Shown here: one piece after another, positions 8,470-54,002 of the stretch
Layout of the letters: each line of letters opens with the position of its first letter
Numbering within the stretch: position 1 is the first letter of the stretch
Source of the DNA: Bryobacterales bacterium
GTDB lineage: Bacteria; Acidobacteriota; Terriglobia; Bryobacterales; UBA6623
Length of the DNA: 64,000 bases
Assembly: GCA_965226245.1 (NCBI GenBank)
Contig: CBDDCL010000009.1
Coordinates: 9,624-73,623 of the forward strand
Direction of reading: 5' to 3'
The notes under the pieces: model-generated
Database searches by the model: none
Told to the model about the DNA's origin: nothing
The model's input: the letters and a program-made list of their open reading frames with translations, nothing else
Position numbers and translations under genes: made by a program

Positions 8470-8769
8470 ACGGCTTCGAACCACGTCACGGCCGCACTCG
8501 CCGAGGACCACCAAAAGATGACCGCACACATCACGAAATTGACCGCCGCCTACGACGCTCTGATCAACTCGTACAACGACTTGACCAACGCCTACAACGC
8601 TCTGAGGAGGGATTTAACAGAGCTCATTCGTTGATCCACGCCGAGGCCGAGCAGAAGCGGAAGGCAGGGCACCTGCGGAACCGCGTTAAGGGTCGAATCG
8701 AGAGCCTTATCCAAGGCAGAGCGCGCAGTCGCGGCCATGACTTCAGCCGGTAGTTTCGAGTGAGAGTTG

Positions 8770-9183: not shown

Positions 9184-9672
9184 TCAGAGCCGTGTGTCGT
9201 CCTTCAGCCACTGTGCAAGTGCCTTGTCGGGATCGGCGATCTCCTCAATCGAGCCGTACCAATAGGCCTCCCAGCCCGTCTCCGGCAGGCCGGTGAATAC
9301 CATCAGGTTCAGCGGATAGGCCTCGCTGTCGGTGCAGCGGCGAAAGTCGTCCCGGAACAGAAACACCGGCTTCTCCCCGGCGATCGCCATGCCCAGCTCC
9401 ACCATCACCCCCTCGTCCGGGGGGCAACCGTTGACCACCGCGAACAGTCCGTCGGCATCCCGTACGTCGTGAAGGTCGGCCTGTCCTATCCGGTATGCCC
9501 AACCGGGGCCTGCCCGGTCGATCTGGTTGTTGCGGGCGAACGGCTCCCATACCTGCACGCCCATCGCCTCCAGGGCCGCCACGAGCGCCGCCAGCGGCCC
9601 CTCGCGCTGCTGCGAGGAGAAGCCGTATGGGTTCGCCAGATACAGGGTCTTCTTGTCTGAGGTCATGTTCAT
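9184..9672 (-). CDS. Nucleoside 2-deoxyribosyltransferase family protein
   Basis: LYLANPYGFS, D.GVMVELGMA, NLMV motifs. Confidence 0.85.
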   Translation of the reverse strand: MNMTSDKKTLYLANPYGFSSQQREGPLAALVAALEAMGVQVWEPFARNNQIDRAGPGWAYRIGQADLHDVRDADGLFAVVNGCPPDEGVMVELGMAIAGEKPVFLFRDDFRRCTDSEAYPLNLMVFTGLPETGWEAYWYGSIEEIADPDKALAQWLKDDTRL

Positions 9673-9946
9673 GCACCTGCTTGTCTCGCCCGCCGCCCGT
9701 TCATGCCGAGGAAAATCTGGGGCGCCTTTTTCTTGAATGCTTCCGGGCAATGCACATCGCACGGGTCCGTCAGCAGCAACGCCTTCGACACCGCCCGCGA
9801 CGAAGCAAGCGGCCACCGCGCTCACCACAGGTGCAGCGTCGAGGGTTGCCCGAGACGGATCGACTTCTCCCGCGCCGCAGGCTTTGAGACTTCGGCTACC
9901 TCCGGCAGCCGCTTGTAGTCTTTGGAAATCATGTCTTTTCTTCCGT

Positions 9947-10348
9947 CTACGAACGGGGCGGAACGAGGATCTCACACCGGGGACCACTGGCGCGACTCAG
10001 CTTTCTGTCAATCGTCACCAGGGGACAATCGAGCACCTCGGCCAGCGCCACGTACCAAGCGTGGTAACTGGTCAGGTTGTTCCGCAATGCCCATACGCGG
10101 TCGGCAAACGGCGCGAAGGGAAACAACTCCAGGTCAAGCCGCAGCAGATCCCCGTGTGCGCTGTTGGCCTCAAGCCGGGAGATTTTGCCGGCTTGTTCCA
10201 GCCGGCGCAGGATGTTGCTCGCTTCGGCCAACGCCAGTTCCGGACTGGCCAAAGATCCCTCAGCGACGGCGGACTCCGCCCATTTCCCTTCCCGCCCCGA
10301 GTCGACCAAGACTGCGACAAGCACGGACGCATCGGCGACTACCGTCAC
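9947..10348 (-). CDS. vapC: VapC/PIN toxin; antitoxin reduced to C-terminal ILSARDADRT*
   Basis: VVADASVLV, PEL..AE..NILRR, Y.A.YVALAE, LVT.D. Confidence 0.85.
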   Translation of the reverse strand: MTVVADASVLVAVLVDSGREGKWAESAVAEGSLASPELALAEASNILRRLEQAGKISRLEANSAHGDLLRLDLELFPFAPFADRVWALRNNLTSYHAWYVALAEVLDCPLVTIDRKLSRASGPRCEILVPPRS

Positions 10349-15217: not shown

Positions 15218-16381
15218 TCATGCTATTGCCTTCCGCTTTCTCTCATCCCAAGTCTCGATGAAAAACGCAACAAGGGTGTGGGAGGCGTGGACGGCGAGAC
15301 GTGCGTGCCGCGCCTGAAGCCGATAGGCCCGACGGCCACGCCCGTGAGCGGAGCCCGTGTGCGTGCGGAGAGATCCGATGCCGTCCACGACGGAGTTCAG
15401 GCCGGAGAGGACCTTCTTTACGTCGTCATCCCCAATGGAGGAAGGGTCAAGCCCCAAGTGCTTGCTGGCCATCTTCCAGAGAGGCTTCAGGCTTTGGTCC
15501 GCGGGCATTTCAACGCTGTTGTCTTCGATGTAGACCTTGAAGAGCGATTCGAGGATCGAACACGCAGCGGTAATGGCGGCCGGCGGGTCTTTCTCGACGT
15601 TCGCCAGCGCCCGCTCGAACTCCATGTCAACGCCGGCAAGATCGCGGTCCTTGAGAACCTGGTTCAAGGATTTGGTGGGCAGCGCGGTGGCGGCTCCGAG
15701 AATGAGGCCGCCCTGATGATAGGAAAGGCCAAACTGCGCCAGGACATCGTGAATCCGCTTTCGTCCAGCCTCCTGTTCTTCCTGTCGAAAAGTTTGATCC
15801 ACCTCCATGAACTCTTCCAAGATCTTGCCCAGTACGGCCGCCGGATTCGGGGCCTCGATGTGCATCCGCTTCAACCATGCCTGGCACTTGGTGACGCAAT
15901 TCCCCTCGGGCACTTCGCCGACAGCGCCCGCCTCGTAGAACAAGATCTCCAAAGCGCGGTGGTTATAGATGAAGGATCCAAGCACATCGCCGATGACGGA
16001 GCATACAGGGACAGGAAGAGGTTTGGCGGGTGCCGGAGGCGTTGCTCTCTCCGCCGCGTCGAGCGAGTCGAGCGTGCCTTCAATATCGGGGAGCAGAGCG
16101 TCGATCTCCGCGCTGGCGGCGAATACCGAGTAGGGGTTGTCGACTTCGATATCGAGGGCGTTCAGCCGAAACGCAACGGCTTCCGGAAGAATGGGGCTGG
16201 CCAATCGCTGGAGCTGAACGAGCAGGTAGCGGTAACCAAGAGTGACCGCCGTTTGTTCATCGGGGTCGTCGGACGGGCCGCAAAAGCGGTAGTTCCGGAC
16301 GTATGCGATGGTGCTTCGGATTTTTTCTCGCTTTGCGGCGTCGATGCTGGGTGCTCTGCGAGCTTCTGCGTTGCTTGCCAT
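15218..16381 (-). CDS. Abortive infection family protein (Abi_C)
   Basis: DP.AAIT.A.S.LES..K and LRT..GSAHGRG motifs; N-terminus abuts an IS1380 end. Confidence 0.8.
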   Translation of the reverse strand: MASNAEARRAPSIDAAKREKIRSTIAYVRNYRFCGPSDDPDEQTAVTLGYRYLLVQLQRLASPILPEAVAFRLNALDIEVDNPYSVFAASAEIDALLPDIEGTLDSLDAAERATPPAPAKPLPVPVCSVIGDVLGSFIYNHRALEILFYEAGAVGEVPEGNCVTKCQAWLKRMHIEAPNPAAVLGKILEEFMEVDQTFRQEEQEAGRKRIHDVLAQFGLSYHQGGLILGAATALPTKSLNQVLKDRDLAGVDMEFERALANVEKDPPAAITAACSILESLFKVYIEDNSVEMPADQSLKPLWKMASKHLGLDPSSIGDDDVKKVLSGLNSVVDGIGSLRTHTGSAHGRGRRAYRLQARHARLAVHASHTLVAFFIETWDERKRKAIA

Positions 16382-16406
16382 TCGGGATGCCGGTAATAGA
16401 GTGGCA

Positions 16407-18206
16407 CCTGAATTATGCACCGATTCGGCGTAGCCATCGCCGATGGAGTTGTGGCGGTAGCGGCAGTCGTGTCAACTCAGTAATCTGGCAAGTCGTCTTT
16501 TCTGCGGTTTCCCTCCCTGTCTGAGCCGCCTGCCCATTCCGGCGGGGCAAAAGCGGGCCGGCAAGCGGCGTGTTCCCAGTACGTTGCGGCGAGTGCATGA
16601 AATTTTATGCACACAGTGCCCCTCAACTCAGCGCACCCTCCACCACCGGCGCGAAGCTCGATCCCGGTGGCCCCATCCCCCGCAGCCGCCGCATCAGCCG
16701 CTCCAACAGGCCCTTTTCCTGATACTGATCGCTGTAGCTGACACCCGTTCTGCCGGCGTGCCGCCAGATCTTGGCCGCCACGAACAGAAAGCGCAGCCGC
16801 GCCGTCGCCAGGGTGGTGTGCCGCAGCGTCTCCACGCTGGCTTGGGCTTCGCGGTTGAACAGCAGCAGCCAGCAGTTGAGGTTGTAGGCCAGCATGGCCA
16901 GCTGAAAGTGATTGCGGTTCATGTCAAAGCGGCGCGAGGGATGGGCCGCCAGCCCGGCGTCGTTGTTGGCCTCCTTGATGAGGTTCTCGGCTGCGGCGCG
17001 CTGATTGTAAAACCACGCCACCGCCGCGATCGGCTCGGCCAGGTTGGTGACAAACACGCGGTAGCTGTAAGCGCTGGTGGCGAACAACTGGTATTGCTCG
17101 GCCGCGCCGGCCGCGGGCTCGTTTTCGTAACGCAGCGCCAGGAAACGGCAGGCCCGCGCCCAGCCTTGCGGCTGGTAGAGGAATTCGCATTCCGCGTCCG
17201 CGTCGGAGCGGGGCGAGGGTTTCCATTCTGCTTGCTGCAAGCGCTCGACCAGGCGCCGCGTTTTGCGCGCCACGATGACGAACTGACAAGCCGCCTTTTC
17301 ATAGGCCTCCACCGCCTCCCAGCAATAAAAGCCGGAATCGGCCCGCGCCAAGATTTTCTTCACGCCGGCCGGCAAAGCCCGGAAAGCGCTCTCGAGGTGG
17401 GCGGCGATCTGTCGGCCCGTGGGCCGGTCGCCGCCGCGCAACCCGCCCATCAGGTATTCGCGCGTCTCGGCCAGGAAAGTCAGTATCGGCTGGTAGCTGC
17501 GCTTGCCCTTGTTCTTGGGGTTGTAACTCTTGCGCCCTCCCATCTGGTGGCCGTAGAGCGTGTGCACGGTGGTGTCGGTGTCCAGCGTCACCGTCTCCAA
17601 TTTCACGTGGGCCGCGGCCCAGACTCGTTCCCGCAGCTGGCGCTGAATGGAAAGGATCTGCTGCGCCACGTTGAGATGCAGCGAGGCCAGAAAGCGCCAC
17701 AGTGTGGATTGCGGCGGCAGCCGTGGCACTCTTAAGATGCCGGTCAGGATGGGATCGCGGGCGATGAAGCGCAGTTGGTGGAGCCGCGCAAAGCCGACAT
17801 AGAGGCCCAGCACGAGGGCCAGCACGAACTGGTAGAGGCTCATCACACGGGTGATCCGTTGGGTCGTGATGGTTTCTTCCAGCAGCGCTTGGAAGCCAAG
17901 TTTTTCGAGCAGGGTGGCGACGGGTAGCAAGCCGCCGTAGGGAGTCAGATTCTTGCCGCGGAAGTGATAGGGCGTGGAAGCCCCGATTTTATTGGGCCGC
18001 GGGGCCCTTACCCCCGGGCCTTGTTTGACGGGCCTTGGGGAGCTATGCTGTTTTCGATTGGTAACCATTTGGGTGACCTCCTTGGGGTGGGTTGGCGAAG
18101 CTGGAATCTTTGCCAGCCTACCTTTTTACCCCATGTTTTCGGGGGTCTCCCAATGGTCCCTCGCGGCTCAGCCCTCCTCAGCTGCACCCGCAGTGCATAA
18201 TTCAGG
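16407..18206 (-). mobile_element. IS1380-family insertion sequence (1800 bp)
   Basis: IRs CCTGAATTATGCAC; flanks TGGCA/TAGTA give no TSD. Confidence 0.92.
16623..18068 (-). CDS. IS1380-family DDE transposase
   Basis: TLDTDTT, RADSGFY, FYNQRAAAENLIKE. Confidence 0.93.
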   Translation of the reverse strand: MVTNRKQHSSPRPVKQGPGVRAPRPNKIGASTPYHFRGKNLTPYGGLLPVATLLEKLGFQALLEETITTQRITRVMSLYQFVLALVLGLYVGFARLHQLRFIARDPILTGILRVPRLPPQSTLWRFLASLHLNVAQQILSIQRQLRERVWAAAHVKLETVTLDTDTTVHTLYGHQMGGRKSYNPKNKGKRSYQPILTFLAETREYLMGGLRGGDRPTGRQIAAHLESAFRALPAGVKKILARADSGFYCWEAVEAYEKAACQFVIVARKTRRLVERLQQAEWKPSPRSDADAECEFLYQPQGWARACRFLALRYENEPAAGAAEQYQLFATSAYSYRVFVTNLAEPIAAVAWFYNQRAAAENLIKEANNDAGLAAHPSRRFDMNRNHFQLAMLAYNLNCWLLLFNREAQASVETLRHTTLATARLRFLFVAAKIWRHAGRTGVSYSDQYQEKGLLERLMRRLRGMGPPGSSFAPVVEGALS

Positions 18207-18988: not shown

Positions 18989-19966
18989 CTAGCGACCTAG
19001 CTGGCCTTGATTGAGCGGTGCGATCATAGGGGTCGAGGGATGCAGAATCAGCGCCCCTTTGGCCGTCATGTAGTTTAACTCTGGCCAGGCCAGCTTGATC
19101 TTCTTCAACTCGCGCAGAACCTTGCGGCGAAAGGCTTGGACGGTGACCTTATCGTTGTCCCTGGTTGGCTCTACTCCGAACTGGCGGTACACCTGCCGCC
19201 AGGAGAGCCGCAGGGGGCTCTTTAGCGTGAAGGTGCGGTAGGCCACCCAGAGGTAGAGGTCGAGACCCAGGGAGGAGCGTTTGAGGGCCTTGAGCGTGTT
19301 CATATCGAGCGGCACAGGGTGGCGGATGATCTCGTTAAAGAACTTCTCGCTCAGTTCGATCTTGCTCTTCCACAACGTACGCTCGTCGGGGCGTTTGGGG
19401 TTCCACCAGAACTCGGTGCGGTCGGCGATCAACGCAGTGACGCTGGCATCCCCGCGCTCATCCTCGTAGGCCAGCGAGACCGTGCAACGGAAGAGCCGCC
19501 GCATCTGATTGCGGAGCCGGGTTTGCTCCCCTCGAGCGCCGCCGCTGGTGCTGTTGATTCCGAGTTTTCGCATGAACTCCGAGAGCGAGGCTCCCAGTAC
19601 GAGCTCGCGCTTTTGCGTCCGCACCGCTTCGGTGCACACCCAGGCCATCAAGAGGCGCGGCAAGTTGCCGAACGGTAGTTTACTAATCGAGGTGGCGGAC
19701 ATAACTAAGGTGTACGGGCCGTTGCGGCGGATGTACTGCGCCCGGTTGCCGGGGTTGCTGCGGGGCAGGCTGCACAGCGCCATCATCCGCGCCATGAAGC
19801 CGAGATCAGCGTCCGCTTCGCTGGCCCCAACCAACTGGTTCACCTGATCGGCCTGGGTGAAGTGGTGCACCGCCTGAGGCGAGGCTTCGCGGAGCTTTTT
19901 GACCGGACCGCCCAGATCGGCCAAGGCTTCACCGATCGGAACCAAGCCGTCCCGTTTGCGCGCCAT
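18989..19966 (-). CDS. repA: Plasmid replication initiator RepA (IncW-like RepA_C family)
   Basis: ALCSLPRSNP, RRNG, LPFG.LPRLLMAWVCTEAVRT, PVPLDM..L.ALKRS.LGLDLY.W. Confidence 0.9.
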   Translation of the reverse strand: MARKRDGLVPIGEALADLGGPVKKLREASPQAVHHFTQADQVNQLVGASEADADLGFMARMMALCSLPRSNPGNRAQYIRRNGPYTLVMSATSISKLPFGNLPRLLMAWVCTEAVRTQKRELVLGASLSEFMRKLGINSTSGGARGEQTRLRNQMRRLFRCTVSLAYEDERGDASVTALIADRTEFWWNPKRPDERTLWKSKIELSEKFFNEIIRHPVPLDMNTLKALKRSSLGLDLYLWVAYRTFTLKSPLRLSWRQVYRQFGVEPTRDNDKVTVQAFRRKVLRELKKIKLAWPELNYMTAKGALILHPSTPMIAPLNQGQLGR

Positions 19967-20762: not shown

Positions 20763-21851
20763 ATGACTAAGAAATCCTTTTGGCGGCGCGGGGAAGACTA
20801 CGCGCAGAAAGTCTCCAGCGAAATCATTGACCAGATCAAGGCCGGAGTTGCGCCGTGGCAGAAGCCGTGGAAGCCGGGAGAACAGATCAGCGCCGAAAAC
20901 TTCTCAACCGGCCAGAAGTACAGCGGCGGCAACAGCCTTTACCTGATGAGCCGCGCGATCCGCGACGGACGGGGAGACAACCGTTGGGGAACCTACAACC
21001 AGATTCGGGAAGCGGGCGGGCAGGTCCGCAAGGGCGAGAAAGGGACGCAGGTTCTATTCTTCACGGATCGCAACAGCAGGGTTGCGAAGGACGAGAAAGG
21101 GCAGACGATGAAGAACAAGGAAGGCAAGACGATCTACGAAGAACAAAAGCGCGAGACGCCCATCTGTAAGCAGTACACGGTTTTTAACGTGGAGCAAGCC
21201 GAGGGCTTGGAATTGAAACCGCGAGAAGGCCAAGTACGGCCCGAATGGGACGCTCATCGAGACGCCGAGAAAGTGATCGCGGCCAGCGGGCCGACCGTCG
21301 AGCACGTCGCCGGAGATCGCGCCTACTATCGCATGGCCGAGGACAAGGTAGTGCTCCCGGAGCCGTCCCAATTCCCCACCCGCAACGGCTACTACCAGAC
21401 GGCGCTTCACGAGTGCGGCCATGCAACCGGCCACCCGGATCGCATGAACCGCGAAACGCTCAAAGAGGGATTAGCCAACGGCTTTGGATCGCCGGAATAC
21501 GCCCGCGAAGAATTGCGGGCCGAGATCAGCGCCATGATGACCGGGGAGCGCGTGGGCGTGGGACATGACCCGCAGCGCGGCGCGGCCTATGTCGAGAACT
21601 GGGTGAAGGTGCTTGAAAAAGACCCGCATGAGATTCATAGAGCGGCGCGAGACGCGCAGAAGATGACCGATCACCTCATGGATCGCGCCATCGACCGCGA
21701 GGTTGCCAAGCCGAGCAAGGAAAAGACGCGGGCCGAGTTGACCCAGGAATACTCTCATGCTCGCGGGCCGCGGATCAGCCAGACGCCAAAACAATCGCCG
21801 GAAAAACAACCCGCTCAAGCCCAACAGCACGACGCAGGGCCGAGCCGTTAA
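20763..21851 (+). CDS. ardC: ArdC-like antirestriction/ssDNA-binding protein with zincin domain
   Basis: APWQKPW, Y.G.N, W.TY.Q, VRKGEKGT, VFNVEQ, HECGHATG, YAREELRAE. Confidence 0.9.
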   Translation: MTKKSFWRRGEDYAQKVSSEIIDQIKAGVAPWQKPWKPGEQISAENFSTGQKYSGGNSLYLMSRAIRDGRGDNRWGTYNQIREAGGQVRKGEKGTQVLFFTDRNSRVAKDEKGQTMKNKEGKTIYEEQKRETPICKQYTVFNVEQAEGLELKPREGQVRPEWDAHRDAEKVIAASGPTVEHVAGDRAYYRMAEDKVVLPEPSQFPTRNGYYQTALHECGHATGHPDRMNRETLKEGLANGFGSPEYAREELRAEISAMMTGERVGVGHDPQRGAAYVENWVKVLEKDPHEIHRAARDAQKMTDHLMDRAIDREVAKPSKEKTRAELTQEYSHARGPRISQTPKQSPEKQPAQAQQHDAGPSR

Positions 21852-32265: not shown

Positions 32266-34692
32266 ATGATGCCATGGCGCGAGATTGGCCCGTACTTGAG
32301 GGAGCTTTGGCAACGGCCCGCTGGCCCGATGAACTGGAAAAACCCGATCCGGGTTTTCGCCGTCGTGGGCTGGCTGGTCGTGCAAGGTTTCGTGCTGTTG
32401 GGGTGGGCCGGGTTTCGCGTGTTTCAAGGTTTCCTTCTGTTGGCGTGGGCCGGGTTTCGCGTCGGGCAATTCGTCGCAGGGCTTCCGCCGCTGCTACTCT
32501 TTTTCTTCGCCGCTGTGGGGTGGGCCGGATGGAGCTTTGTACACCGTCCCTTCCCGCCGCTTGACGAGCATCCGATCCTCGTTCTGGTGGAATACCACAC
32601 CCCTAATTTCTTCGATGCTCTGGTCGTCTGGTACTACGTTACGCCCTTCGCTGTCGTCATGCTGACCGGCTTTATTTCCGTCACCATCTGGAGGGTTTGG
32701 CTGGAAGGGCGGCGGAGCGATTTCGCATCCTTCGCCAAGCTCCCGCCGTGGCCGCTTGATCCCAAACAAAAGGCCCCGGCCATCGTCATCGGGGAGGTCC
32801 ATCACCCGGTCGAAGCGCGCGAGGTTTTCAATCCCTCATGGCTCACCATCCCGGAGCGCGGACTGTATACCGGCGTGGCGATCTTCGGAGCCGTGGGATC
32901 AGGGAAAACCTCGGCTTGCATGAACCCGTTTGCCCGCCAACTTCTCGGCTGGCAAGCGGGCAGTCAGCAGAAGCGGGCGGCGGCCCTCGTGCTAGAAGTC
33001 AAGGGAGATTTCTGTCACGACATCCGCCAAATTCTAGTCGAGGCGGGCCGTGGACAAGACTACATCGAGCTTGGCATGAACGCCCGCTCTCAATGGAATC
33101 CGCTCTCGGCTTGGTGGCTCGATTCGTACTCGCTGGCCTACACCGTTTCGAGCCTTCTCAATCAGCTATTCGGCAAGGGCAAAGAACCCTTTTGGCAGCA
33201 AGCCTATACCAATCTGGTCCGCTGGATCATCGAGCTTTACCGCGTGTTCCCGGATCGTTGGGTGACGTTGCAACAGGTCTACCGCTGCGCCATCGACCCG
33301 GAGCTATTCGCGGCCAAGATCGAGGAAGCCAAGAAGCTGAGCGATGACCTCAACACAGGAACCATTTTCATCAAGGAACACGTACTACAAGCCCAAAAGT
33401 TAAACCTTGCCGAATGGAACTGGGTCGATGCACCGGACATGAAGGATAACGTACAAGCCGTCTACACGCGCCCGCTCAAAGAGAAGCTAGACGAGCTCAA
33501 CATCCCGCATGAGATCGTTTGGGAACCCGGACCCGGCGAAGACACGAGAGAGCGCATGGAGGCCGTCAACCGCTGGTTTGTCCACGACTGGCAAAACCTA
33601 GACAACAAGATCAAGTCTTCGATTGTGGAGGGGGTTTCAGTGTTCCTTGCCATGTTCGATATGCCGGACGTGGCGAAGGTGTTTTGTCCCGTCGCGCCGC
33701 TTACCTCTGACGATCCTCAAGCCATCATCCTGCAAGCCGCGATCAAGCGAGCCAGGGCGGACAAGGACGCGAAGAAAGCCAAGCAGCCGGAGCCGGAAGC
33801 GGAGCCAGAGCCAGAGGCGCAACCGGAGCCGGAGGCCCAGGCGGAGCCAAAGCCAAAGGCCGCACCGTGGGAACTGGTGCAGCCCGTCATTACTGACAGC
33901 GACCAACCCACCGCCCCCGGCCCGCCGCATATCAAACCGACAGCCCCGATCACGCAGCACCTACCGCCGCTCTTTGAATTGATCGAGCAGGGCAAGGTGC
34001 TGGCCTTGAATATGCCCGCTGGTATCAACCCGGCGCTGTCCCGCGCCGTGGGCGTGATGCTCAAGAACGCTTGGCTACAGGCGCTTCTCATGCGACCGGC
34101 CAAGATGAAGGCGAACCCGGGCAGCTACTTCCGGCCCGCCGTCTTTATCTGTGACGAATATCAAGCCTTCGCTTCGGTGGGCGAGGAAGACCCATCAGGC
34201 GATGAAAAATCCTTTGCGCTGACCCGCCAATGCCGCTGCATCCCGATTGTCGCCACGCAATCTATTTCCTCGTTGCGGGCCGTGTTGGGAAGCTCGGAAG
34301 CGTGGCGCTCGCTGTTGCAGACACTCCGTACACGAATCTTCCTATCTCTCAGCGACGACGCCAGCGCCAAGATTGCGTCGGAGTTGTGCGGCCAGGTGGC
34401 GAAGATCAAGGAATCCTACACCATCAGCGAGACTTCTAAACGCTCGGAAGTCTCCCCGCTCTCAGGCCGGGCCGGAGGCGGAGGCGGGAGCATGGGCGCG
34501 ACCAAATCATTCCGGGAGCAGCGCGAGGCCGTGTTTCACCCGCGAGACTTCGCCTTGCTCTCGAACTGTCAAGCGATCTGTCTGCCCTATGACGGGGCGC
34601 AGTCGCTTGAGCCGCGCCGCGTTTACCTGAAACCACACTATCTACCAGCCGAACACTCCTATTGGAGAGCGAAGGAGGCGGGCCAAATATGA
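32266..34692 (+). CDS. virD4: Type IV coupling protein (VirD4/TraG-like)
   Basis: N-terminal TMs, GAVGSGKT, LEVKGDF, WNPL, CDEYQ, ATQS.SSL. Confidence 0.9.
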   Translation: MMPWREIGPYLRELWQRPAGPMNWKNPIRVFAVVGWLVVQGFVLLGWAGFRVFQGFLLLAWAGFRVGQFVAGLPPLLLFFFAAVGWAGWSFVHRPFPPLDEHPILVLVEYHTPNFFDALVVWYYVTPFAVVMLTGFISVTIWRVWLEGRRSDFASFAKLPPWPLDPKQKAPAIVIGEVHHPVEAREVFNPSWLTIPERGLYTGVAIFGAVGSGKTSACMNPFARQLLGWQAGSQQKRAAALVLEVKGDFCHDIRQILVEAGRGQDYIELGMNARSQWNPLSAWWLDSYSLAYTVSSLLNQLFGKGKEPFWQQAYTNLVRWIIELYRVFPDRWVTLQQVYRCAIDPELFAAKIEEAKKLSDDLNTGTIFIKEHVLQAQKLNLAEWNWVDAPDMKDNVQAVYTRPLKEKLDELNIPHEIVWEPGPGEDTRERMEAVNRWFVHDWQNLDNKIKSSIVEGVSVFLAMFDMPDVAKVFCPVAPLTSDDPQAIILQAAIKRARADKDAKKAKQPEPEAEPEPEAQPEPEAQAEPKPKAAPWELVQPVITDSDQPTAPGPPHIKPTAPITQHLPPLFELIEQGKVLALNMPAGINPALSRAVGVMLKNAWLQALLMRPAKMKANPGSYFRPAVFICDEYQAFASVGEEDPSGDEKSFALTRQCRCIPIVATQSISSLRAVLGSSEAWRSLLQTLRTRIFLSLSDDASAKIASELCGQVAKIKESYTISETSKRSEVSPLSGRAGGGGGSMGATKSFREQREAVFHPRDFALLSNCQAICLPYDGAQSLEPRRVYLKPHYLPAEHSYWRAKEAGQI

Positions 34693-37057: not shown

Positions 37058-37233
37058 CTACGGTGGGCCGCCCGGTAGATGAGATGTGCGCATCACACCA
37101 ATATCACCTTCTCCGCGCGGGACAAGATTCCAAATGACCGGCGAGGATTCCCAAAGGACAGTGCAATAATCGTGTGAGCAACCAATGCTGCACAGACACG
37201 GAACACAGCAACTCCGACCGTGAGAGGCAACCC

Positions 37234-39582
37234 ATGGCACCGCAGGATCTGCTCAGCAGCCGGGCCGTCTTCTTTGCTTACCCTTCTAGTCACTTGTCTG
37301 TCCGCGAGACCATCGAACACGCCTGCGGTGATCTGAAGAGCCGGACGGGCCACGCTGGAGTCCGTACCTGGGGGGAAGACGAAGTCGTGGGACGTTTCGT
37401 GGCGACGGATGTTCTCGCTCGAATTTCTGCATCGGACTGCCTAATCGCGGACGTAACGTATCTAAACTTCAACGTTACGTTTGAGATCGGCTACGCAATT
37501 GCGCAGGGCAAATCAATCGCGCTGACCAGGTTTGCTGGAGTCGGTACGCAACCAGAATTCACTGAGGCCGGCGTCTTCGACACGATCGGCTACCATGCAT
37601 ACGAAAACAGGCAGCAGCTGCTCGACTTTCTCCTGACAACCTCCGAACCACATCCTCTCTTCAGCGCGCCGCTGGAGCCGAACCGCAAAGCTCCCGTCTA
37701 TTTGATGGAGGCCAAATTCAAGACGGACCCTGTTACGCGTATGATCGCGCGCATAAAGAAGGCTCGACTCTTCTTCCGAAGCTTCGACCCTATTGAACAA
37801 CCTCGTCTCAGCACGCCCGAGGCTATTCGCCAAGTCTCGCAGTCTTATGGGGTACTCGTCCACCTCCTTTCTGCGACCGTCGCCGACCACGTTGTCCACA
37901 ATAATCGGGCAGCCTTTATCGCCGGTCTCGCTCTTGGAAGCGAAAAAGTCCTCACGATCTTGCAACATGGGGATGACCCAGTCCCGCTTGACTACCGGGA
38001 CCTCGTGACTCGGTTCCACTCGCTTGACCAGATTGACGATGCCATCGCTGAATTCGCTCCTCGCGTCACGGAAGCGTGGCAAACAGGCCGAGAGCTGCCG
38101 ACTGGCTCGCCAGCGACCTCTCTTGAGCAACTCAATCTCGGAGCCTCGTCAGCAGAAAACGAGTTGCGCGACTTGTCATGCTACTTTCTCCGAACCGACG
38201 CATATCAAAGAGCGCAGCGCGGCGACGTGAGGTTGGTGGTCGGTCGAAAGGGATCCGGCAAGACTGCGGTGTTTGCGCAAACCAGAGATAATCTCAGGCG
38301 CAACAAACAGAACATCATTCTGGACTTGAGACCAGAGGGTTACAAGTTGCTGAAATTCAAGGAGGACGTACTAAGGCTTCTGGAGCAGGGGACCTTTTAC
38401 CACACAATCACGGCGTTTTGGGAATACGTGCTCCTGTTGGAGGTCTGCCACAAGCTCCTCGAGAAGGACCGGGAACGGCACAAACGCAATTCGACCTTGT
38501 TCGAGCCGTACCGAGTGATTGCGGACCTTTACGAAGCGGACCGGTTTATCAGCGAGGGTGACTTCCCGGAACGGATGTCGAGACTGATTGATTTGATCCG
38601 GACGAGGCACACCGGCAAATACGGCTCTCATCCCAAGCCAAGATTGTCCGAACCTGAGATAACTGAACTGCTGTACGACCACGACGTCGCAACTCTTAGG
38701 GATCAGGTAACGAACTACCTAAAGCGAAAAGAGAGCGTCTGGATACTGTTTGACAATCTCGACAAGGGGTGGCCGACACATGGACTCGATCATGAGGATG
38801 TGCTCATCCTTCGAGCACTTCTGGAGGCCACCCGCAAGCTTGAACGTCACCTGCATCGCAATGAGATCGACGCCCACACATTGGTCTTCATTCGTAATGA
38901 CGTATATGAACTACTCGTAGAGGAAAGCCCGGATCGCGGGAAGGAAACGAAGGCGATCCTCGACTGGACCGATCGAGACCTACTACGCGAAATCATACGG
39001 AGGCGTCTTGTCTTCAGTGGGCTATCCGATAAGCTCTCGGCTGGTGAAGCGTGGCTGGCCATCTGCACGAGCCATATCAAAGGAGAAGAAAGCTCTGAGT
39101 ATCTAATTGATCGCTGTCTGATGCGGCCACGATGCCTGATCGACATTATCAATTACTGCAAGAGCTTCGCAGTCAATCTGCGACATCAACGTATCGAGGC
39201 CGAAGACATAGAGAAGGGGTTGAACGCTTACTCGACTGACCTTGTTTTCGAGGTTGGACTCGAGATGCGCGACATCCTGCCAGAGGCTGAAGATCTTCTG
39301 TACGAGTTCATCGAAAGCCCACACCAGATTCCTGAGGATCGTTTGGCGCAAACACTTGGACAGTACAAAGAACAGCTGCGGGGGGCACTTCTCGAGAACC
39401 TTCTTTGGTACGGTTTCTTGGGTGTCGTGCGATTAACTGGAGAGATCGACTACATATACACGGTGAACTACGACATGAACATGCTGAACGCGATTGTAGC
39501 CAAGCTGAGGGATACGGGCCTTGTCTACTGCATCAATCCCGCTTTCTGGTCAGGCCTCCAAGTTTCCATTCCTCATGACTGA
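37234..39582 (+). CDS. NDT/TIR-like domains fused to P-loop ATPase (Sll1717-like); candidate defence protein
   Basis: FFAYPS, IADVT.LNFNVTFEIGYAIA; Walker A GRKGSGKT; Walker B ILFDNLDKGW; RPR motif. Confidence 0.8.
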   Translation: MAPQDLLSSRAVFFAYPSSHLSVRETIEHACGDLKSRTGHAGVRTWGEDEVVGRFVATDVLARISASDCLIADVTYLNFNVTFEIGYAIAQGKSIALTRFAGVGTQPEFTEAGVFDTIGYHAYENRQQLLDFLLTTSEPHPLFSAPLEPNRKAPVYLMEAKFKTDPVTRMIARIKKARLFFRSFDPIEQPRLSTPEAIRQVSQSYGVLVHLLSATVADHVVHNNRAAFIAGLALGSEKVLTILQHGDDPVPLDYRDLVTRFHSLDQIDDAIAEFAPRVTEAWQTGRELPTGSPATSLEQLNLGASSAENELRDLSCYFLRTDAYQRAQRGDVRLVVGRKGSGKTAVFAQTRDNLRRNKQNIILDLRPEGYKLLKFKEDVLRLLEQGTFYHTITAFWEYVLLLEVCHKLLEKDRERHKRNSTLFEPYRVIADLYEADRFISEGDFPERMSRLIDLIRTRHTGKYGSHPKPRLSEPEITELLYDHDVATLRDQVTNYLKRKESVWILFDNLDKGWPTHGLDHEDVLILRALLEATRKLERHLHRNEIDAHTLVFIRNDVYELLVEESPDRGKETKAILDWTDRDLLREIIRRRLVFSGLSDKLSAGEAWLAICTSHIKGEESSEYLIDRCLMRPRCLIDIINYCKSFAVNLRHQRIEAEDIEKGLNAYSTDLVFEVGLEMRDILPEAEDLLYEFIESPHQIPEDRLAQTLGQYKEQLRGALLENLLWYGFLGVVRLTGEIDYIYTVNYDMNMLNAIVAKLRDTGLVYCINPAFWSGLQVSIPHD

Positions 39583-40960: not shown

Positions 40961-41203
40961 ATGAGCATGGAAGCTGTGAGCGCTTTTCTAGGATGGTGCA
41001 CGATCATTAATGTAGGGATTCTCATCTGGTGGTTTCTGTTCGTCACTCTGGCGCACGATTTTACCTATCGCTGCCATCGAAAGCTCGTCAACATCTCGGT
41101 TGAGACGTTCGATGCGATCCATTACGGCGGCATGGCAGTCTTCAAGTTTGGCGTACTGTTGTTCAATCTGGTGCCGTATCTGGCCTTGAAGATCGTCGGC
41201 TGA
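40961..41203 (+). CDS. Small membrane protein (DUF6868-like)
   Basis: FLGWCTIIN.GIL..W, FDAIHY.GMA.FK....LFNLVPYLAL; GGAGG RBS. Confidence 0.75.
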   Translation: MSMEAVSAFLGWCTIINVGILIWWFLFVTLAHDFTYRCHRKLVNISVETFDAIHYGGMAVFKFGVLLFNLVPYLALKIVG

Positions 41204-41267
41204 GGCGGATTTGATTTATGTAGGGGCGGGACTACAATCCAGGGATCTGGCCACGGACGTTTCAGGG

Positions 41268-41836
41268 TTATCCACAGATCGCTGTGATTCGGGGCAGTTA
41301 TCCACGGGCAAACACCTATACTCCGCTTCGAGCAAACACCTATATTTTCTCCCAAAATCTTCGAGCAAACACCTATACACTCATGTAGTTAAAGAACAAG
41401 TAGTAAGAGCGACGAACCTGTGGATAAACTCGCTGAAGAAAAACGGCCCGAAAAGGCAAAATCAAAACCTTCCTTATAGGTAAAGAACTGAAGACAAAGG
41501 ACTTACACCATACCGCGGCGGAACGGGCAAGCGGACCGACAACAAAACCAGAATCAAAACCCCCGGATAGCCTACGCCGAGAGGCGAGTCAAGCCGCCGG
41601 CGCGGCTCCTACGCTACGCTACGGCCCTGCGGGTGACAGCGCCCCTCGGCTGCGGCTCAAGGCGGCTGGTATGACCGAAAGCTCCCTTTCGGCCCGTCCA
41701 CACGGCCCGAATCCCCCTTTTCCCTCATAAACAGCCATCCCTTCGGATCGGCCCGCAGCAGTCCAGGGCGCGAAGCGGCAAAGCGAACCCTTGACGGCGA
41801 GGACCGATCTGGAATCATCCAGGGCGAGGGAAAAGG
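41268..41836 (+). other. Plasmid origin module 2 without rep, followed by a hairpin promoter
   Basis: DnaA boxes at 41268, 41298 (1 mismatch), 41419; GCAAACACCTATA x3 (41308, 41332, 41365); backbone homologous to 18420-18735. Confidence 0.75.
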
Positions 41837-41949
41837 AGCTTCTTGCTGTGTCTATCAATAGATATATTTATATTTCTTTGTACTGCCACAGAGCTTCTTC
41901 GAGTCCAGCAAAGCGGCTCGCCTGTCAAGTGGCGAAGCCGTTGTACTCG

Positions 41950-43376
41950 ATGTTGGAGGACCGGCTGGAGCAGGTGCGGGAGATCGACGGAGAGCTGGCT
42001 TACGAGAAGATGAGGCGGGCAGTGGAGAAGGCCAGCCAAGAGAAGGCTAGGCAGGCTAGGCAAGTGGAGAGGGCTAGGCTAGTGTAGTGTCCATGAAATA
42101 AATGGACAGTTATTTCTTCTTCCGTTTTCTGGGCCGCGGGCTGCTGCAGCCGGGCTGAATCTGCTCCAAGGTGCGTCGGCAGCGCGAAAGTTTCTCCGTG
42201 ATCGACTCCACCGTCGCCGTCCAAACGAAGGGTTTCGGCTCCTGGTTCCAGACCCTCAGGAATTCCTCAATGCAGTCCTTGAGCTCCCCCACGCTGCCGA
42301 ATGCCCCGCGCCGGATCGCCTTCTGAGTCAGTTCGCCGAACCAACGCTCGACCAGGTTCAGCCAACTGGAACTGGTCGGCACAAAGTGCGTCTCAAAGCG
42401 CGGGTGGCGCTGCAACCAGCCCCGCACCTTCTCGTGTTTATGCGTCCCATAGTTGTCCAGGATTAAATGCAGCGGCACGTCGCCGGGGAACTCCTTGTCG
42501 AGCGTGCGCAAGAACTTCAGAAACTCCTGATGCCGGTGGCGCGGAAAGCATTGGCCAATCACTTTGCCCTGCAAGGTCTCCAGGGCGGCGAATAGTGTCG
42601 TCGTGCCGTTGCGCTTGTAGTCATGGGTCATGGTCCCGCAGCGCCCCTTCTTGAGCGGCAAGCCCGGCTGCGTCCGATCCAGAGCCTGAATCTGACATCT
42701 TCTCGTCCACGCACAACACGACCGCCTGTTGGGGCGGATTCAAGTACAGCCCGACCACGTCGGTCAATTTGTCCAGGAACTTCGGATCGCGCGACAGCTT
42801 AAAGGTCTTCACACGGTGGGGCTTGAGGTTGTGGGCTCGCCAGATGTTGTGGATGGTGGACTTGCTGACTCCCTGGTTTTTGGCCAGCGTGCGGCAACTC
42901 CAATGCGTCATTCCCTTGGGCTTGGTTTGCAGGGTGGCGTCCACAATGGCGCTGATCTTGTCGATGTCATAGGTGGGCTTGCGCCCGCGTCCGGGGGAAA
43001 TCTCCCACAGACCGTCGAGTCGCTGTTGGTCAAAGCGCTGACGCCACAGAATGACGGTTTTGCGGTTGACAGACAACTGCTTGGCGATGGCGACATCGGA
43101 GAGACCCTGGCTCGAAGCCAGCACGATTCGGCAGCGTAGCGCCACCTGCTGAGGGGTGCCATGGGCGCCGATCCATTGCCGCAGCAGCTGCTGCTCGGAG
43201 GGCGAAAGTTCGCAGGGGGAAGCCATACCCCAGGATGCGATAAACCAGGCGACTTGTCCAGTTATTTGTCGGACACTACACTAGAGTGGGATAGGCAAGA
43301 GACGGCAAGGCAAAGCAGGGACCGCCGTGGGCCGGAACGCAGGGGGCCGGAACGGGACTTTGGCCCCAGCCGCTAG
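41950..43376 (+). pseudogene. 74-aa ORF ending RDFGPSR, interrupted by IS630
   Basis: Removing the IS and one TA restores MLEDRLEQV...RARL/EWDRQETARQ...RDFGPSR* in frame. Confidence 0.65.
42082..43281 (-). mobile_element. IS630-family element (1200 bp) with frameshifted transposase
   Basis: IRs GTGTAGTGTCC...AAATAA, TA duplication, HTH + DDE (DEK, DNY, SSWLN.VERWF); frameshift at VDEK near 42697. Confidence 0.92.
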
Positions 43377-43828
43377 GTTTCTCTCGGTGGTTTTGTCCTA
43401 GGGGGGCGGGCGTGGGAGAATGTTGGATGTGTCCGAGGAGCCGGAACCAATGTCAAAACAGGAAGAGACCCAAAACGGCGTGAGGGATGCCAACCGCGCG
43501 ATTCGCCGTGTTCTCGCTGATGAAGTTCCCTCGATTGATTGTTCCTTTGGAGATGATGACCCGCCTGCGAGGGTTCGTGGCATCATCACCGCTGCCTTGC
43601 CGCCCAGCAGTGGCGGAGCCGCTAAGCGAGTTATGAAACGCCTTGGCATCAAAGCAACGGACGGACTGCCAATGTCACCCTACGACTGCGCCTACAACAC
43701 TCAGATAATTGGCGTGGGAGGAGCGTTCGTTGGGTCTGACAGGCAAGAGACGGCAAGGCAAAGCAGGGACCGCCGTGGGCCGGAACGCGGGGGGCCGCAG
43801 CGGGACTTTGGCCCCAGCCGCTAGGTTT
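43293..43828 (+). repeat. 88-bp direct repeats (43293-43380, 43741-43828) encoding a shared C-terminal tail
   Basis: AGGCAAGAGACGGCAAGG...GACTTTGGCCCCAGCCGCTAGGTTT with few mismatches. Confidence 0.92.
43450..43824 (+). CDS. Hypothetical protein (124 aa) with RDFGPSR tail
   Basis: GAGGAG RBS; TTGTCC-N17-GAGAAT promoter-like motif at 43393-43421. Confidence 0.65.
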   Translation: MSKQEETQNGVRDANRAIRRVLADEVPSIDCSFGDDDPPARVRGIITAALPPSSGGAAKRVMKRLGIKATDGLPMSPYDCAYNTQIIGVGGAFVGSDRQETARQSRDRRGPERGGPQRDFGPSR

Positions 43829-43912
43829 GGTCTTGCTCAGGGGGCGTGGGAGAATGGGCAGAACGGATTGGGAGGAAAGGGAGCGACGAAACCATGGAAG
43901 ATGGAGGGCGGG

Positions 43913-44197
43913 ATGGACGTGCAAGAAGCCGTACAAATGGCGAAAGAATACATAAACAAAATTTTTGAGACTGAAAACATCCAGTGGGTAGGTCTCGAAG
44001 AGATTGTATTTGATGACGCGAGCGATAGCTGGAAAGTGACCATTGGCTTCTCTCGGGCATGGGGCCTCGTGCCCACCGTGTCGGCAGCCGTCGGAGACAG
44101 GAGCGCGCGAGTATTCAAGGTTGTTCAAATTGATGACCATACAGGTCGTATCGTATCCCTGACCGATCGCGCTCTGCTCAACGCGAATTTGAGATGA
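43913..44197 (+). CDS. Small hypothetical protein, putative partner of the PIN protein
   Basis: GGAGG RBS; MDV.EAV..AK.Y, GLEE..FD, W.VTIGFSR; stop overlaps PIN start. Confidence 0.75.
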   Translation: MDVQEAVQMAKEYINKIFETENIQWVGLEEIVFDDASDSWKVTIGFSRAWGLVPTVSAAVGDRSARVFKVVQIDDHTGRIVSLTDRALLNANLR

Positions 44198-44646
44198 TGC
44201 GCCGGACGGGAACGTTCATCGATGCGAATCTACTTGTGGTGCTTGTCGTTGGATTAGTAGATCGAAAGTTGGTTGGTAAACGTCGCCGAACGAGGACCTT
44301 TACGCCGGAAAATTACGACCGTCTTCTCGTGGAGATCGGGGATCTCCCAATATTTGTTACGCCGAATACACTTACCGAAGCGTCCAATCTGCTTGAGGAC
44401 CCCAAAGACACTCGATTTCTTGACCAGCTCCGGGTCCTCATCGAAATAAGCAAGGAGATTGTCGTCGACAGTTCCACCGCCGCGCAGAACAGCGATTTCA
44501 CACGGCTTGGACTAGCCGACACCGCGCTTCTGGAGGTCATCTCGGCGGAACGGCCACTGTTCACCGTGGATTCCGCGCTTTACAGAGCTGCTCTGTCAAA
44601 GGGAGAGGCGAGCGCGGTCAACTTCACGTATCTCCAGAACTTGTAG
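44194..44646 (+). CDS. PIN-domain protein
   Basis: IDANLLV, TPN.LTEASNL, RLGLADT, T.D..LY. Confidence 0.8.
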   Translation: MMRRTGTFIDANLLVVLVVGLVDRKLVGKRRRTRTFTPENYDRLLVEIGDLPIFVTPNTLTEASNLLEDPKDTRFLDQLRVLIEISKEIVVDSSTAAQNSDFTRLGLADTALLEVISAERPLFTVDSALYRAALSKGEASAVNFTYLQNL

Positions 44647-44755: not shown

Positions 44756-46556
44756 CCTGAATTATGCACTGCGGGGTGCACCGGAGGAGGGCTGAGCCGC
44801 CAGGGGCCATTTGGGGGACCCCCGAAAACATGGGGTAATAAGGTAGGCTGGCAAAGATTTCAGCTTCGCCAGTCAACCCCAAGGAGGTCACCCAAATGGT
44901 TACCAAGCGAAAACAGCATAGCTCCCGAAGGCCCGTCAAACAAGGCCGGGGCGCGAGGGCCCCGCGGCCCAATAAAATCGGGGCTGCCACGCCTTATCAC
45001 TTCCGCGGCAAGAATCTGACTCCCTACGGCGGCTTGCTGCCCGTCGCCACCCTGCTCGAAAAACTCGGCTTCCAGGCGCTGCTGGAAGAAACCATCACGA
45101 ACAAACGAATCACCCGTGTGATGAGCCTCTACCAGTTTGTGCTGGCCCTCGTGCTGGGCCTCTATGTCGGCTTTGCGCGGCTGAACCAACTCCGCTTCAT
45201 CGCCCGCGACCCCATCTTGACCGGCATCTTGCAAGTGACGCGTCTGCCGCCGCAGTCCACGCTGTGGCGCTTTCTGGCCTCGCTGCACCTCAACGTGGCG
45301 AAGCAGATCCTTTCCATTCAGCGCCAGCTGCGGGAACGAGTCTGGGCCGCGGCCCAGGTGAAATTGGAGACGGTGACGCTGGACACCGACACCACCGTGC
45401 ACACGCTCTACGGCCGCCAGATGGGCGGGCGCAAGAGTTACAACCCCAAGAACAAGGGCAAGCGCAGCTACCAGCCGATACTGACTTTCCTGGCCGAGAC
45501 GCGCGAATACCTGATGGGCGGGTTGCGCAACGGCGACCGGCCCACGGGCCGGCAGATCGCCGCCCACCTCGAGAGCGCCTTTCGGGCTTTGCCGCACGGC
45601 GTGAAGAAAATCCTGGCGCGGGCCGATTCCGGGTTTTATTGCTGGGAGGCGGTGGAGGCCTATGAAAAGGCGGCTTGTCAGTTCGTCATCGTGGCGCGCA
45701 AGACCAGGCGGCTGGTCGAGCAGTTGCAGCAAGCGGCCTGGAAGCCCTCGCCCCACAGCGATGCGGATGCGGAATGCGAATTCCTCTACCAGCCGCAGGG
45801 CTGGGCGCGGGCCTGTCGTTTCCTGGCGCTGCGTTACGAAAACGAACCCGCGGCCGGCGCGGCCGAGCAATACCAGCTGTTTGCCACCAGCGCTTACACC
45901 TACCGCGTGTTTGTCACCAACCTGGCCGAACCGATCGCGGCGGTGGTGTGGTTTTACAATCAGCGCGCCGCAGCCGAGAACCTCATCAAGGAGGCCAACA
46001 ACGACGCCGGGCTGGCGGCCCATCCCTCGCGCCGCTTTGACATGAACCGCAATCACTTTCAGCTGGCCATGCTGGCCTACAACCTCAACTGCTGGCTGCT
46101 GCTGTTCAACCGCGAAGCCCAAGCCAGCGTGGAGACACTGCGGCACACCACCCTGGCGACGGCGCGGCTACGCTTTCTGTTCGTGGCGGCCAAGATCTGG
46201 CGGCACGCCGGCAGAACGGGTGTCAGCTACAGCGATCATTATGAGGAAAAGGGCCTGTTTGAACGGCTGATGCGGCGGCTGCGGGCGATGGGGCAACCGG
46301 GATCGAGCTTCGCGCCGGTGGTGGAGGGTGCGCTGAGTTGAGGGGCGCTCCATGCATAAAATTTCATGCACTCGCCGCAACGTACTGGGAACACGCCGCT
46401 TGCCCGCCCGCTTTTGCCCGCCGGGATTGGCAGGCGGCTCAAACAGGGAGGGAAACAGAGGAAAAGACGACTTGCTAAATCACTGAGTTGACACGACTGC
46501 CGCTACCGCCACAACTCCATCGGCGATGGCTACGCCGAATCTGTGCATAATTCAGG
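44756..46556 (+). mobile_element. IS1380-family insertion sequence (1801 bp)
   Basis: IRs CCTGAATTATGCAC; 4-bp TSD TACA; isoform of 16407-18206. Confidence 0.93.
44896..46341 (+). CDS. IS1380-family DDE transposase
   Basis: 481 aa, near-identical to 16623-18068. Confidence 0.93.
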   Translation: MVTKRKQHSSRRPVKQGRGARAPRPNKIGAATPYHFRGKNLTPYGGLLPVATLLEKLGFQALLEETITNKRITRVMSLYQFVLALVLGLYVGFARLNQLRFIARDPILTGILQVTRLPPQSTLWRFLASLHLNVAKQILSIQRQLRERVWAAAQVKLETVTLDTDTTVHTLYGRQMGGRKSYNPKNKGKRSYQPILTFLAETREYLMGGLRNGDRPTGRQIAAHLESAFRALPHGVKKILARADSGFYCWEAVEAYEKAACQFVIVARKTRRLVEQLQQAAWKPSPHSDADAECEFLYQPQGWARACRFLALRYENEPAAGAAEQYQLFATSAYTYRVFVTNLAEPIAAVVWFYNQRAAAENLIKEANNDAGLAAHPSRRFDMNRNHFQLAMLAYNLNCWLLLFNREAQASVETLRHTTLATARLRFLFVAAKIWRHAGRTGVSYSDHYEEKGLFERLMRRLRAMGQPGSSFAPVVEGALS

Positions 46557-53833: not shown

Positions 53834-54002
53834 CATGAGCCACCCGTTACTGGCTCGGGCCAAAGTCCCGCTTCGGGCCGCGCTGCCGTTCCCGCGCTAG
53901 CGACTCGGCCCGAAGTCGCGGTCGTAGTCTCGTCCATGTGTCGCTCCGGTGTGATGCCCATCTGACGCGCCAGGTCGCCGCTGGCGAATGCTCGCGAAGG
54001 CG

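Follow-up and report, generated by a model that had tools for sequence, protein, structure and literature searches.

A 64,000-nt stretch of DNA from a Bryobacterales bacterium (bases 9624-73623 of a 77.9-kb contig, CBDDCL010000009.1; the whole stretch is called the window, and positions are numbered within it) contains two copies of an arginine-rich C-terminal tail, at the ends of two open reading frames (ORFs), A and B. Homology shows that this tail natively ends the ~460-aa relaxases of a MobA/VirD2-type family (PF03432); its last six residues, DxGPSR-COOH, look selected. The contig resembles a conjugative plasmid in its gene content: RepA, ArdC, type IV secretion system (T4SS) genes and a coupling protein. 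The following explanation is considered fairly probable as a whole. Recombination and decay of plasmid backbones would have left the relaxase 3' end, with the spacer that follows it, in two places. In copy 1, the first ~380 relaxase codons would have been replaced by a replication-origin-like piece and the rest split by an IS630-type insertion sequence (IS); in copy 2, the relaxase 3' end would have been fused in frame to ORF B. The VirD4-type coupling protein would recognise DxGPSR-COOH on the Arg-rich disordered tail, relaxase and ArdC would be sent through the conjugation channel, and ORF B would be carried along by accident or by advantage. The anatomy alone is held with high confidence; the export function of the motif stands at about even chances.

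The tail copies lie in a 91-nt direct repeat (43290-43380 and 43738-43828, 96% identical), with a 24-nt core that is present two times in the window, where 100 shuffles predict 0.00. Read in frame, both copies give the end ...DRQETARQSRDRRGPER(R/G)GP(E/Q)RDFGPSR-stop, with eight Arg in a tail of ~28-29 residues. This bears out the first-pass annotation of this DNA, which had described a shared ~29-aa Arg-rich tail encoded by direct repeats at the ends of two ORFs. The parts of the locus are as follows.

41200-41840, no strand: non-coding backbone piece adjoining the relaxase remnant, with three 22-nt iteron-like repeats at 41300-41378 (direct repeat family D2).
41947-42081, plus strand: ORF A 5' piece; 73% identity over 48 residues (382-429) in a tblastn search of relaxase P0165 against the genome.
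42082-43283, minus strand: IS630-type element of 1,202 bp, counted with one TA, splitting the relaxase remnant.
43284-43376, plus strand: ORF A 3' piece with tail copy 1, ending RDFGPSR-stop; match to P0165 up to residue 459.
43377-43422, plus strand: degenerate copy of the post-relaxase spacer, with 8-nt and 4-nt insertions relative to copy 2.
43450-43737, plus strand: ORF B body, of no known family (longest frame from 43420).
43738-43824, plus strand: tail copy 2, a relaxase 3' end fused in frame to ORF B.
43825-43877, plus strand: conserved post-relaxase spacer, TTGGTC-N17-GAGAAT followed by a GGGAGG ribosome-site-like leader.

The owner of the tail was found by protein searches. The last 40 residues of ORF B retrieved 85 proteins of 73-235 aa from a large protein collection. 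Eighty of these carry the relaxase C-terminal signature (...EERLEQVREIDGE.AYEKM...) that also precedes the tail in ORF A, and one more (P0058) is relaxase-derived by eye, making 81 of the 85 short tail proteins relaxase C-terminal pieces. A search for longer proteins with one of them (P0044) found 168 relatives, 120 of which were listed; the relaxase counts given here refer to those 120. All except two carry PF03432, and most are 400-490 aa in length. Their ends are DxGPSR in 101 cases, near variants in 5 and other sequences, mostly frameshifted read-throughs, in 14. Since full-length PF03432 proteins end in the tail, the tail is the native relaxase C-terminus, which places the proposed export tag of the first-pass annotation on a canonical T4SS substrate. 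Among named assemblies, those with the closest relatives of the tailed relaxase belong to Acidobacteriota. A scan of genome contigs with the relaxase gave 57 loci, with the D.GPSR end only in the Acidobacteriota loci L001, L004, L005 and L039; the GPSR-type ends of L038, L040 and L048 have no Asp and were set aside as chance-like. In metagenome contigs, the relatives found with the relaxase alignment were all distant, at 64% identity or less.

ORF A is, judged by homology, a 74-codon 3' remnant of such a relaxase gene and not a gene of its own. It aligns solely to residues 382-459 of P0165 (the second segment with 68% identity over 44 residues), and the sequence upstream of it is the backbone piece; hence it is read as a gene remnant. 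It keeps the C-terminal homology, while the N-terminal part is missing, including the nuclease domain with its catalytic Tyr and His-rich metal site. The ORF A sequence is also present in uninterrupted short relatives (P0002, P0003) and within the full-length PF03432 proteins (P0086-P0205). No PF03432 relaxase match was found anywhere in the genome, nor a match to a second relaxase clade described below; besides ORF A, tblastn detected only three short relaxase scraps. Thus ORF A is not the orphan cassette ORF of the first-pass annotation, which had itself named relaxase debris as an outcome that would speak against its proposal; part of the interval assigned to it there (41713-41949) belongs to the non-coding backbone piece. 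The interruption of ORF A by an IS630 element, also claimed there, is real. The IS630 family is marked by a DDE_3 transposase with an N-terminal helix-turn-helix (HTH) domain, terminal inverted repeats and duplication of a TA target. All three are present: a transposase in two frames, 42621-43226 and 42110-42661 (DDE_3, E=1.5e-20; HTH_23, E=4.9e-13; also HTH_32), 30-nt terminal inverted repeats at 42079-42108 and 43255-43284 that are 87% complementary, and TA at both junctions. Excision of 42082-43283 by script, with one TA kept, restores a single open frame of 74 codons from 41950 to the tail.

The second copy has a different history. In a scan of 1.84 billion representative proteins, the ORF B body had four relatives. 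One (P0327, 108 aa) is 94% identical to it and has another C-terminus; a second (P0329, 103 aa) is 46% identical and has its own short acidic C-terminus; P0328 and P0330 are shorter forms. Because tail-less relatives exist, the ORF B tail is a secondary in-frame graft, taking the place of roughly the last 5-8 native residues, on what is by these comparisons a small conserved protein. One claimed joining of the tail to another protein is therefore real. The ORF B-tail fusion is also seen in P0001 (124 aa), which stands for a cluster with 30 members. ORF B, P0001, P0327 and P0329 match no Pfam family, the best protein atlas score for the ORF B body, 0.84, falls short of the usable level, and none of the family's 76 other genomes was found to contain the body. 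At third codon positions it has a G+C of 0.56, against 0.70-0.74 in the T4SS genes. RNA-library contigs, which do not show transcription, hold a 93%-identical relative of the ORF B body, with a match that ends at 43708, before the graft; such contigs also cover the spacer and two downstream genes.

The hexapeptide itself looks selected because two distant relaxase clades and ArdC share it with differing codons. Between copies, Arg is encoded by CGG, CGA or CGC, Gly by GGC, GGG or GGA, and Pro by CCC, CCG or CCA, while the residues stay constant; the tail is accordingly a protein-level C-terminal motif, as had been claimed, and not a mere DNA repeat. The second clade (clade 2) includes intact proteins of 515-568 aa in several genomes, with PF03432 matched at E ~1e-7. 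Alignment to P0165 is limited to 115 core residues, with 29% identity, and fails in the C-terminal half; yet the last ten residues can be identical at 10 of 10 positions between the clades. The clade-2 end is D[SHQFYT]GPSR (D[SHQF]GPSR in the intact 515-568-aa members), and the stop codon also varies.

ArdC, the third carrier, lies at the head of the T4SS cluster. The genes concerned are listed here.

20763-21851, plus strand: ArdC, with PF08401 (E=7.8e-35, 120 bits) and PF18818 (E=3.7e-38, 131 bits), both above the cut-off.
Directly downstream of ArdC: T4SS genes VirB2, VirB4, VirB9, VirB10 and VirB6.
Also on the contig: VirB11 and a ParA/VirC1-like ATPase.
32266-34692, plus strand: VirD4-type coupling protein (PF10412, PF12696).

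The two ArdC domains are the N-terminal single-stranded DNA (ssDNA)-binding domain and the zincin-like metallopeptidase domain. They are followed by a C-terminal extension of ~65 residues ending QQHDAGPSR-stop at 21851, the similar end that had been pointed out on this protein. Among the 120 best ArdC relatives (57-97% identical), 80 end in [DE]xGPSR, 15 in near variants (GPGR, GLSR, GPDR), and the remaining 25 are shortened, frameshifted or fused forms. The 24 residues ahead of the motif are far less conserved than the motif. Its codons, stop context and downstream sequence all differ from those of the relaxase copies. The T4SS cluster opens with tailed ArdC in all 18 loci examined from 13 other genomes; this ArdC is followed by the same neighbour gene and VirB2 in 18, VirB4 in 17, VirD4 in 16 and VirB11 in 15; the shortfalls of the last three are loci rearranged or cut by a contig end.

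How far the tail has spread to other proteins bears on an alternative put forward by the first-pass annotation, in which the tail is a swappable export tag placed by recombination on many cargo genes, giving a cassette-like, possibly anti-defence, family of delivered proteins. This is judged unlikely. It would account for the clean graft that keeps almost the whole of ORF B and recurs in the 30 sequences of P0001, for the presence of the tail on two relaxase clades and ArdC, for the different genes found after tail and spacer in different genomes, and for resolvase-tail fusions (P0068 and five others). But non-relaxase N-termini occur only in P0001 and P0068 among the 85 short tail proteins; the other resolvase fusions consist of ~64 N-terminal resolvase residues plus relaxase sequence, which makes them debris-like. 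The ORF B body was found in no second genome of the family, as noted above, and no further gene of the window, all of which were checked, has a DxGPSR-type end.

A census speaks against such a family as well. A degenerate DNA pattern for DxGPSR-stop, applied to 77 genomes of the family, gave 82 matches against 18 for the reversed pattern used as control; the window's own genome ranks highest, with 8 against 0. Six of the matches end in TGG instead of a stop. The other 76 sites comprise 21 ArdC genes or remnants, 32 relaxases or remnants, 7 short frame-less repeat copies and 16 unclassified sites, the last being short or non-coding-looking frames in about the control number. The 32 relaxase sites belong to two clades, 23 assigned by tblastn and 9 by eye from the end, and one of them is the ORF B graft; 14 census sites were classed from pattern matches and ArdC loci instead of extracted loci. 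Since the carriers are ArdC, relaxases or their debris, and one graft, a diverse family of swappable tagged cargo is not supported at this depth. Within the window's own genome, tblastn identifies the contig C4 copy as what remains of a clade-2 relaxase, the C15 copy has the same end and no tblastn match and was classed as debris by eye from that end, and the C10 copy is unclassified; C4 and C15 show no coding-like frame above the end. In genome G016, a 21-mer ending DPGPSR-stop occurs six times in a 12-codon frame (one at locus L074) and represents a short dispersed repeat, not a gene with a tail. Two of the unclassified frames, L174 (G024:C596, 80 aa, ...PEPDVGPSR) and L176 (G054:C134, 85 aa, ...DRDSGPSR), match neither ArdC nor the relaxases and are possible further carriers.

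Other ends in the window had been named as relatives of the tail. The tandem ends on the minus strand do exist:

53847-53940, minus strand: two tandem tail ends, debris, beside a truncated resolvase N-terminus.

One has its stop at 53897 (...DRDFGPSR-stop) and the other at 53847 (...KRDFGPSQ-stop), 50 nt apart and in different frames. No coding-like frame lies above them, a 120-aa frame there has no Pfam family, and the tail-motif census of related genomes gave no relaxase match at the 53520-type site. The end near 8750 (RSRGHDFSR-stop) is present and lacks the G-P-S core, so it does not match.

The DNA that follows the stop codons raises a different alternative. After copy 2 comes a spacer of ~45 nt that starts TTTGGTCTTGCTCAGGGGGCGTG and continues (A/G)GAGAATGGGC; a weaker repeat in this region (43385-43422 against 43819-43856) is 71% identical. 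Four other genomes have the ~45-nt spacer behind relaxase stops, at five loci in all (G012, G024, G027 twice, G073), and the genes 3' of it differ between those loci. In the window it is followed by two small genes:

43889-44197 and 44194-44646, plus strand: small genes overlapping by 4 nt, with no Pfam family and no paralogue in the genome.

The layout of this pair is toxin-antitoxin-like. In four sequencing runs, summed contig depth is higher over 43761-43862 than over the ORF B body by a factor of about 100, many contigs of these runs diverge after 43877, and several tail remnants lie beside RepA genes or fragments. The spacer is read, provisionally, as the leader of the next gene after the relaxase and as a frequent recombination junction. 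Of the sigma70-like motifs that the first-pass annotation had placed after each repeat, the conserved sequence holds up, recurring in the four other genomes; as a promoter the motif is weaker, agreeing with the consensus at 8 of 12 positions and receiving no call in a promoter scan.

It could be argued that what is conserved is an element of the DNA, be it recombination site, transfer origin or promoter for the following gene, that overlaps the relaxase end, with the peptide incidental. The conservation past the stop, the depth profile and the RepA neighbours all point that way, as do two loci (L081 and L083) that retain only the last 7 tail codons and the spacer, with a RepA gene ~36 nt downstream of this type of junction (tblastn on L173, the same G027 site as L083). 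Such an element would not explain why residues are kept while codons vary, why ArdC has the motif with different codons and no such spacer, or why the x residue and the stop codon differ among clade-2 relaxases. Nor does the DNA look like a structured site: the repeat region folds no better than shuffled sequence (RNA z=+1.38, DNA z=-0.44), there is no inverted repeat beyond the IS ends, and no Rfam match came near the threshold, the one sub-threshold hit, inside the IS, being a chance match. This explanation is accordingly considered very improbable. An integron-type attC cassette was rejected on the same grounds, the sole inverted repeat being the IS ends and no fold exceeding shuffles; an integron integrase was not searched for.

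In favour of the selected export motif, two properties expected of a translocation signal are present. The motif sits at the extreme C-terminus in the majority of both carriers (101 of the 120 listed relaxases, 80 of the 120 best ArdC relatives), and its context is Arg-rich, positively charged (net charge of the last 25 residues +3 in ORF B and +1 in ArdC) and apparently unstructured, ArdC residues 333-362 having a predicted local distance difference test score (pLDDT) below 50 and no secondary structure in the predicted structure. The VirD4-type protein has an acidic Pro/Glu repeat insert at about residues 497-530 (matched by the Trypan_PARP model, E=0.0036). That this insert is the natural partner of the Arg-rich tail is only an idea. 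Modelling of a complex of VirD4 residues 160-808 with the last 60 residues of the relaxase alignment gave no answer (score 0.00, no controls run) and counts neither way.

Several findings weigh against the export explanation. The tail-spacer junction of L081 and L083 recurs with only 7 codons, so that some of the tail's spread took place at the DNA level. The tail DNA of clades 1 and 2 is 88-93% identical over 28-35 nt, and the decapeptide common to the two could come from DNA exchange instead of selection. The alignment used for the ArdC model (A3) was chosen largely from rows ending in GPSR, so that its invariant last columns reflect that choice; the unbiased count is the 80 of 120 given above. 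In none of the 18 loci do the 20 kb downstream of ArdC contain a P0165-type relaxase, and the window's genome has no relaxase; tailed relaxase and tailed ArdC are thus seen together directly only as remnants, in G000, G027 and G075, and no intact tailed relaxase shares a contig with this T4SS among the contigs examined. Finally, it is the recipient that requires the ArdC of R388, whereas the donor does not, and the available text of that study never mentions translocation (PMC7213743).

The last point is among those that fit another alternative, in which DxGPSR-COOH is functional but not in export, acting as a protease tag or as a docking peptide for a shared partner at work on the transferred ssDNA. 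Both proteins that have the motif handle the transferred strand, and in both it is restricted to the free C-terminus; its tail is predicted to be disordered, and R388 ArdC works when made in the recipient, as far as the accessible part of the report goes (PMC7213743). Against this stand the lack of any identified partner or protease and the better agreement with known T4SS signals of an Arg-rich setting, a relaxase as carrier and an ArdC gene that opens the T4SS cluster, as these signals are described in the portion available of PMC10025392. The alternative is held to be improbable. Should the motif have no role in export, nothing about the locus is unusual: it would be the debris of a mobilisation gene in an IS-rich plasmid.

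With export through VirD4 retained as the preferred reading, a stronger form can be stated tentatively, at clearly less than even confidence: DxGPSR-COOH would be a compact portable export signal of one conjugative lineage, read by the coupling protein on both relaxase clades and on ArdC, ArdC would enter the recipient with the DNA, and the signal would now and then be captured by neighbours. Its location at the very end of the relaxase gene, beside a recombination-prone spacer, is what would allow capture by neighbours such as ORF B. The broader interpretation of the first-pass annotation survives in part: the C-terminal motif on relaxase, ArdC and one graft stands, and the portion built on ORF A as cargo and on further cargo families finds no support.

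The plasmid set of this genome looks heavily recombined. The assembly consists of fourteen contigs of 24-117 kb and one of 7.1 Mb, with a G+C of ~60% in all. On the small contigs (C1-C14), RepA genes or fragments and partial T4SS sets are scattered, often several on one contig, and the set may not be self-transmissible by a relaxase of the PF03432 type. Copies of the backbone piece occur on 11 other contigs (blastn, 76-96% identity), and comparison with RepA tblastn matches places some of them directly beside RepA genes, as on C8 and C13. Given these copies and the iteron-like repeats, the piece is probably a replication-origin region, here without its RepA. The RepA gene of the window lies elsewhere:

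18989-19966, minus strand: RepA.

Two inverted genes for a 481-aa DDE_Tnp_1_4 transposase, at 16623-18068 (minus strand) and 44896-46341 (plus strand), flank RepA, ArdC, the entire T4SS cluster, the relaxase remnant and ORF B in a composite-transposon-like arrangement. The plasmid also carries defence-type genes (12111-14966; 15218-16420, minus strand; 37174-39582; 9184-9987, minus strand) whose products are a restriction-modification enzyme of MmeI-like type, an Abi_C protein, a protein of 802 aa resembling AAA/STAND proteins, with a weak nucleoside 2-deoxyribosyltransferase match, and a second protein with that last domain. Among metagenome proteins, resolvase N-termini are joined to the relaxase C-terminal region in P0004, P0005, P0047, P0068, P0071 and P0082, and ArdC to the VirB4 C-terminus in P0210 and P0312; such joins suggest that these elements rearrange often, or that assembly produced chimeras.

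Most export signals of T4SSs are either whole domains or loosely defined patterns of charge. A terminal motif of six residues common to relaxases and an anti-restriction protein, ArdC, would, if truly an export signal, be unusually easy to test, and transferred proteins of uncultured, little-studied bacteria could be searched for with it. The hexapeptide was not met in the T4SS-signal and ArdC literature looked at, a weak negative, as the available texts came from searches without the motif itself as a term. As far as the available text of one study goes, there is a close likeness to the VirB/D4 system of Agrobacterium, in which VirF, VirE2, VirE3 and MobA (last 48 residues) carry Arg-rich C-terminal signals that are portable to reporters in published cases (PMC10025392). 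In both systems, a short, positive, unstructured extreme C-terminus is found on a relaxase and on accessory proteins. The sharp terminal hexapeptide DxGPSR is not described in the accessible part of that paper; the present carriers belong to elements of another bacterial group, with Acidobacteriota as nearest named relatives of the tailed relaxase, and their export is predicted.

The tailed relaxase resembles the MobA/VirD2-type relaxases that accompany MobC on small mobilizable plasmids, having the PF03432 domain and 33-50% identity to annotated relaxases beside mobC. No record of the plasmid database covers 80% of it and all are less than 60% identical; the C-terminal half and the tail are clade-specific. 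R388 ArdC has the same two domains as the ArdC of the window; it is 297 aa with no C-terminal extension (the available part of PMC7213743), in contrast to the ~65-residue extension seen here. In the 25 best ArdC matches of the plasmid database, the alignment ends at query residues 306-354 and never reaches the motif. The RP4 primase TraC1, which shares the N-terminal domain of ArdC, is transferred to recipients according to the discussion section of the same study (PMC7213743). An export function of the motif would bear on whether some ArdC proteins reach the recipient alongside the DNA and are not synthesised there.

For ORF B, the relevant precedent is Bartonella, where toxins, VbhT among them, have acquired a relaxase-derived signal by fusion on repeated occasions, according to the portion available of PMC5675462. 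Here as there, a secretion signal of relaxase origin, putative in the present case, is found on an unrelated small protein of a conjugative plasmid. The two differ in that the BID is a folded domain of ~100 residues, accompanied by a charged tail, whereas 29 disordered residues were moved here onto a protein without known activity, whose export is predicted. If the export reading is right, the ORF B graft would be a snapshot of relaxase-signal capture, the route proposed for the Bartonella effectors, and a first step toward new injected proteins. The principle is known, and the specific motif seems to be new.

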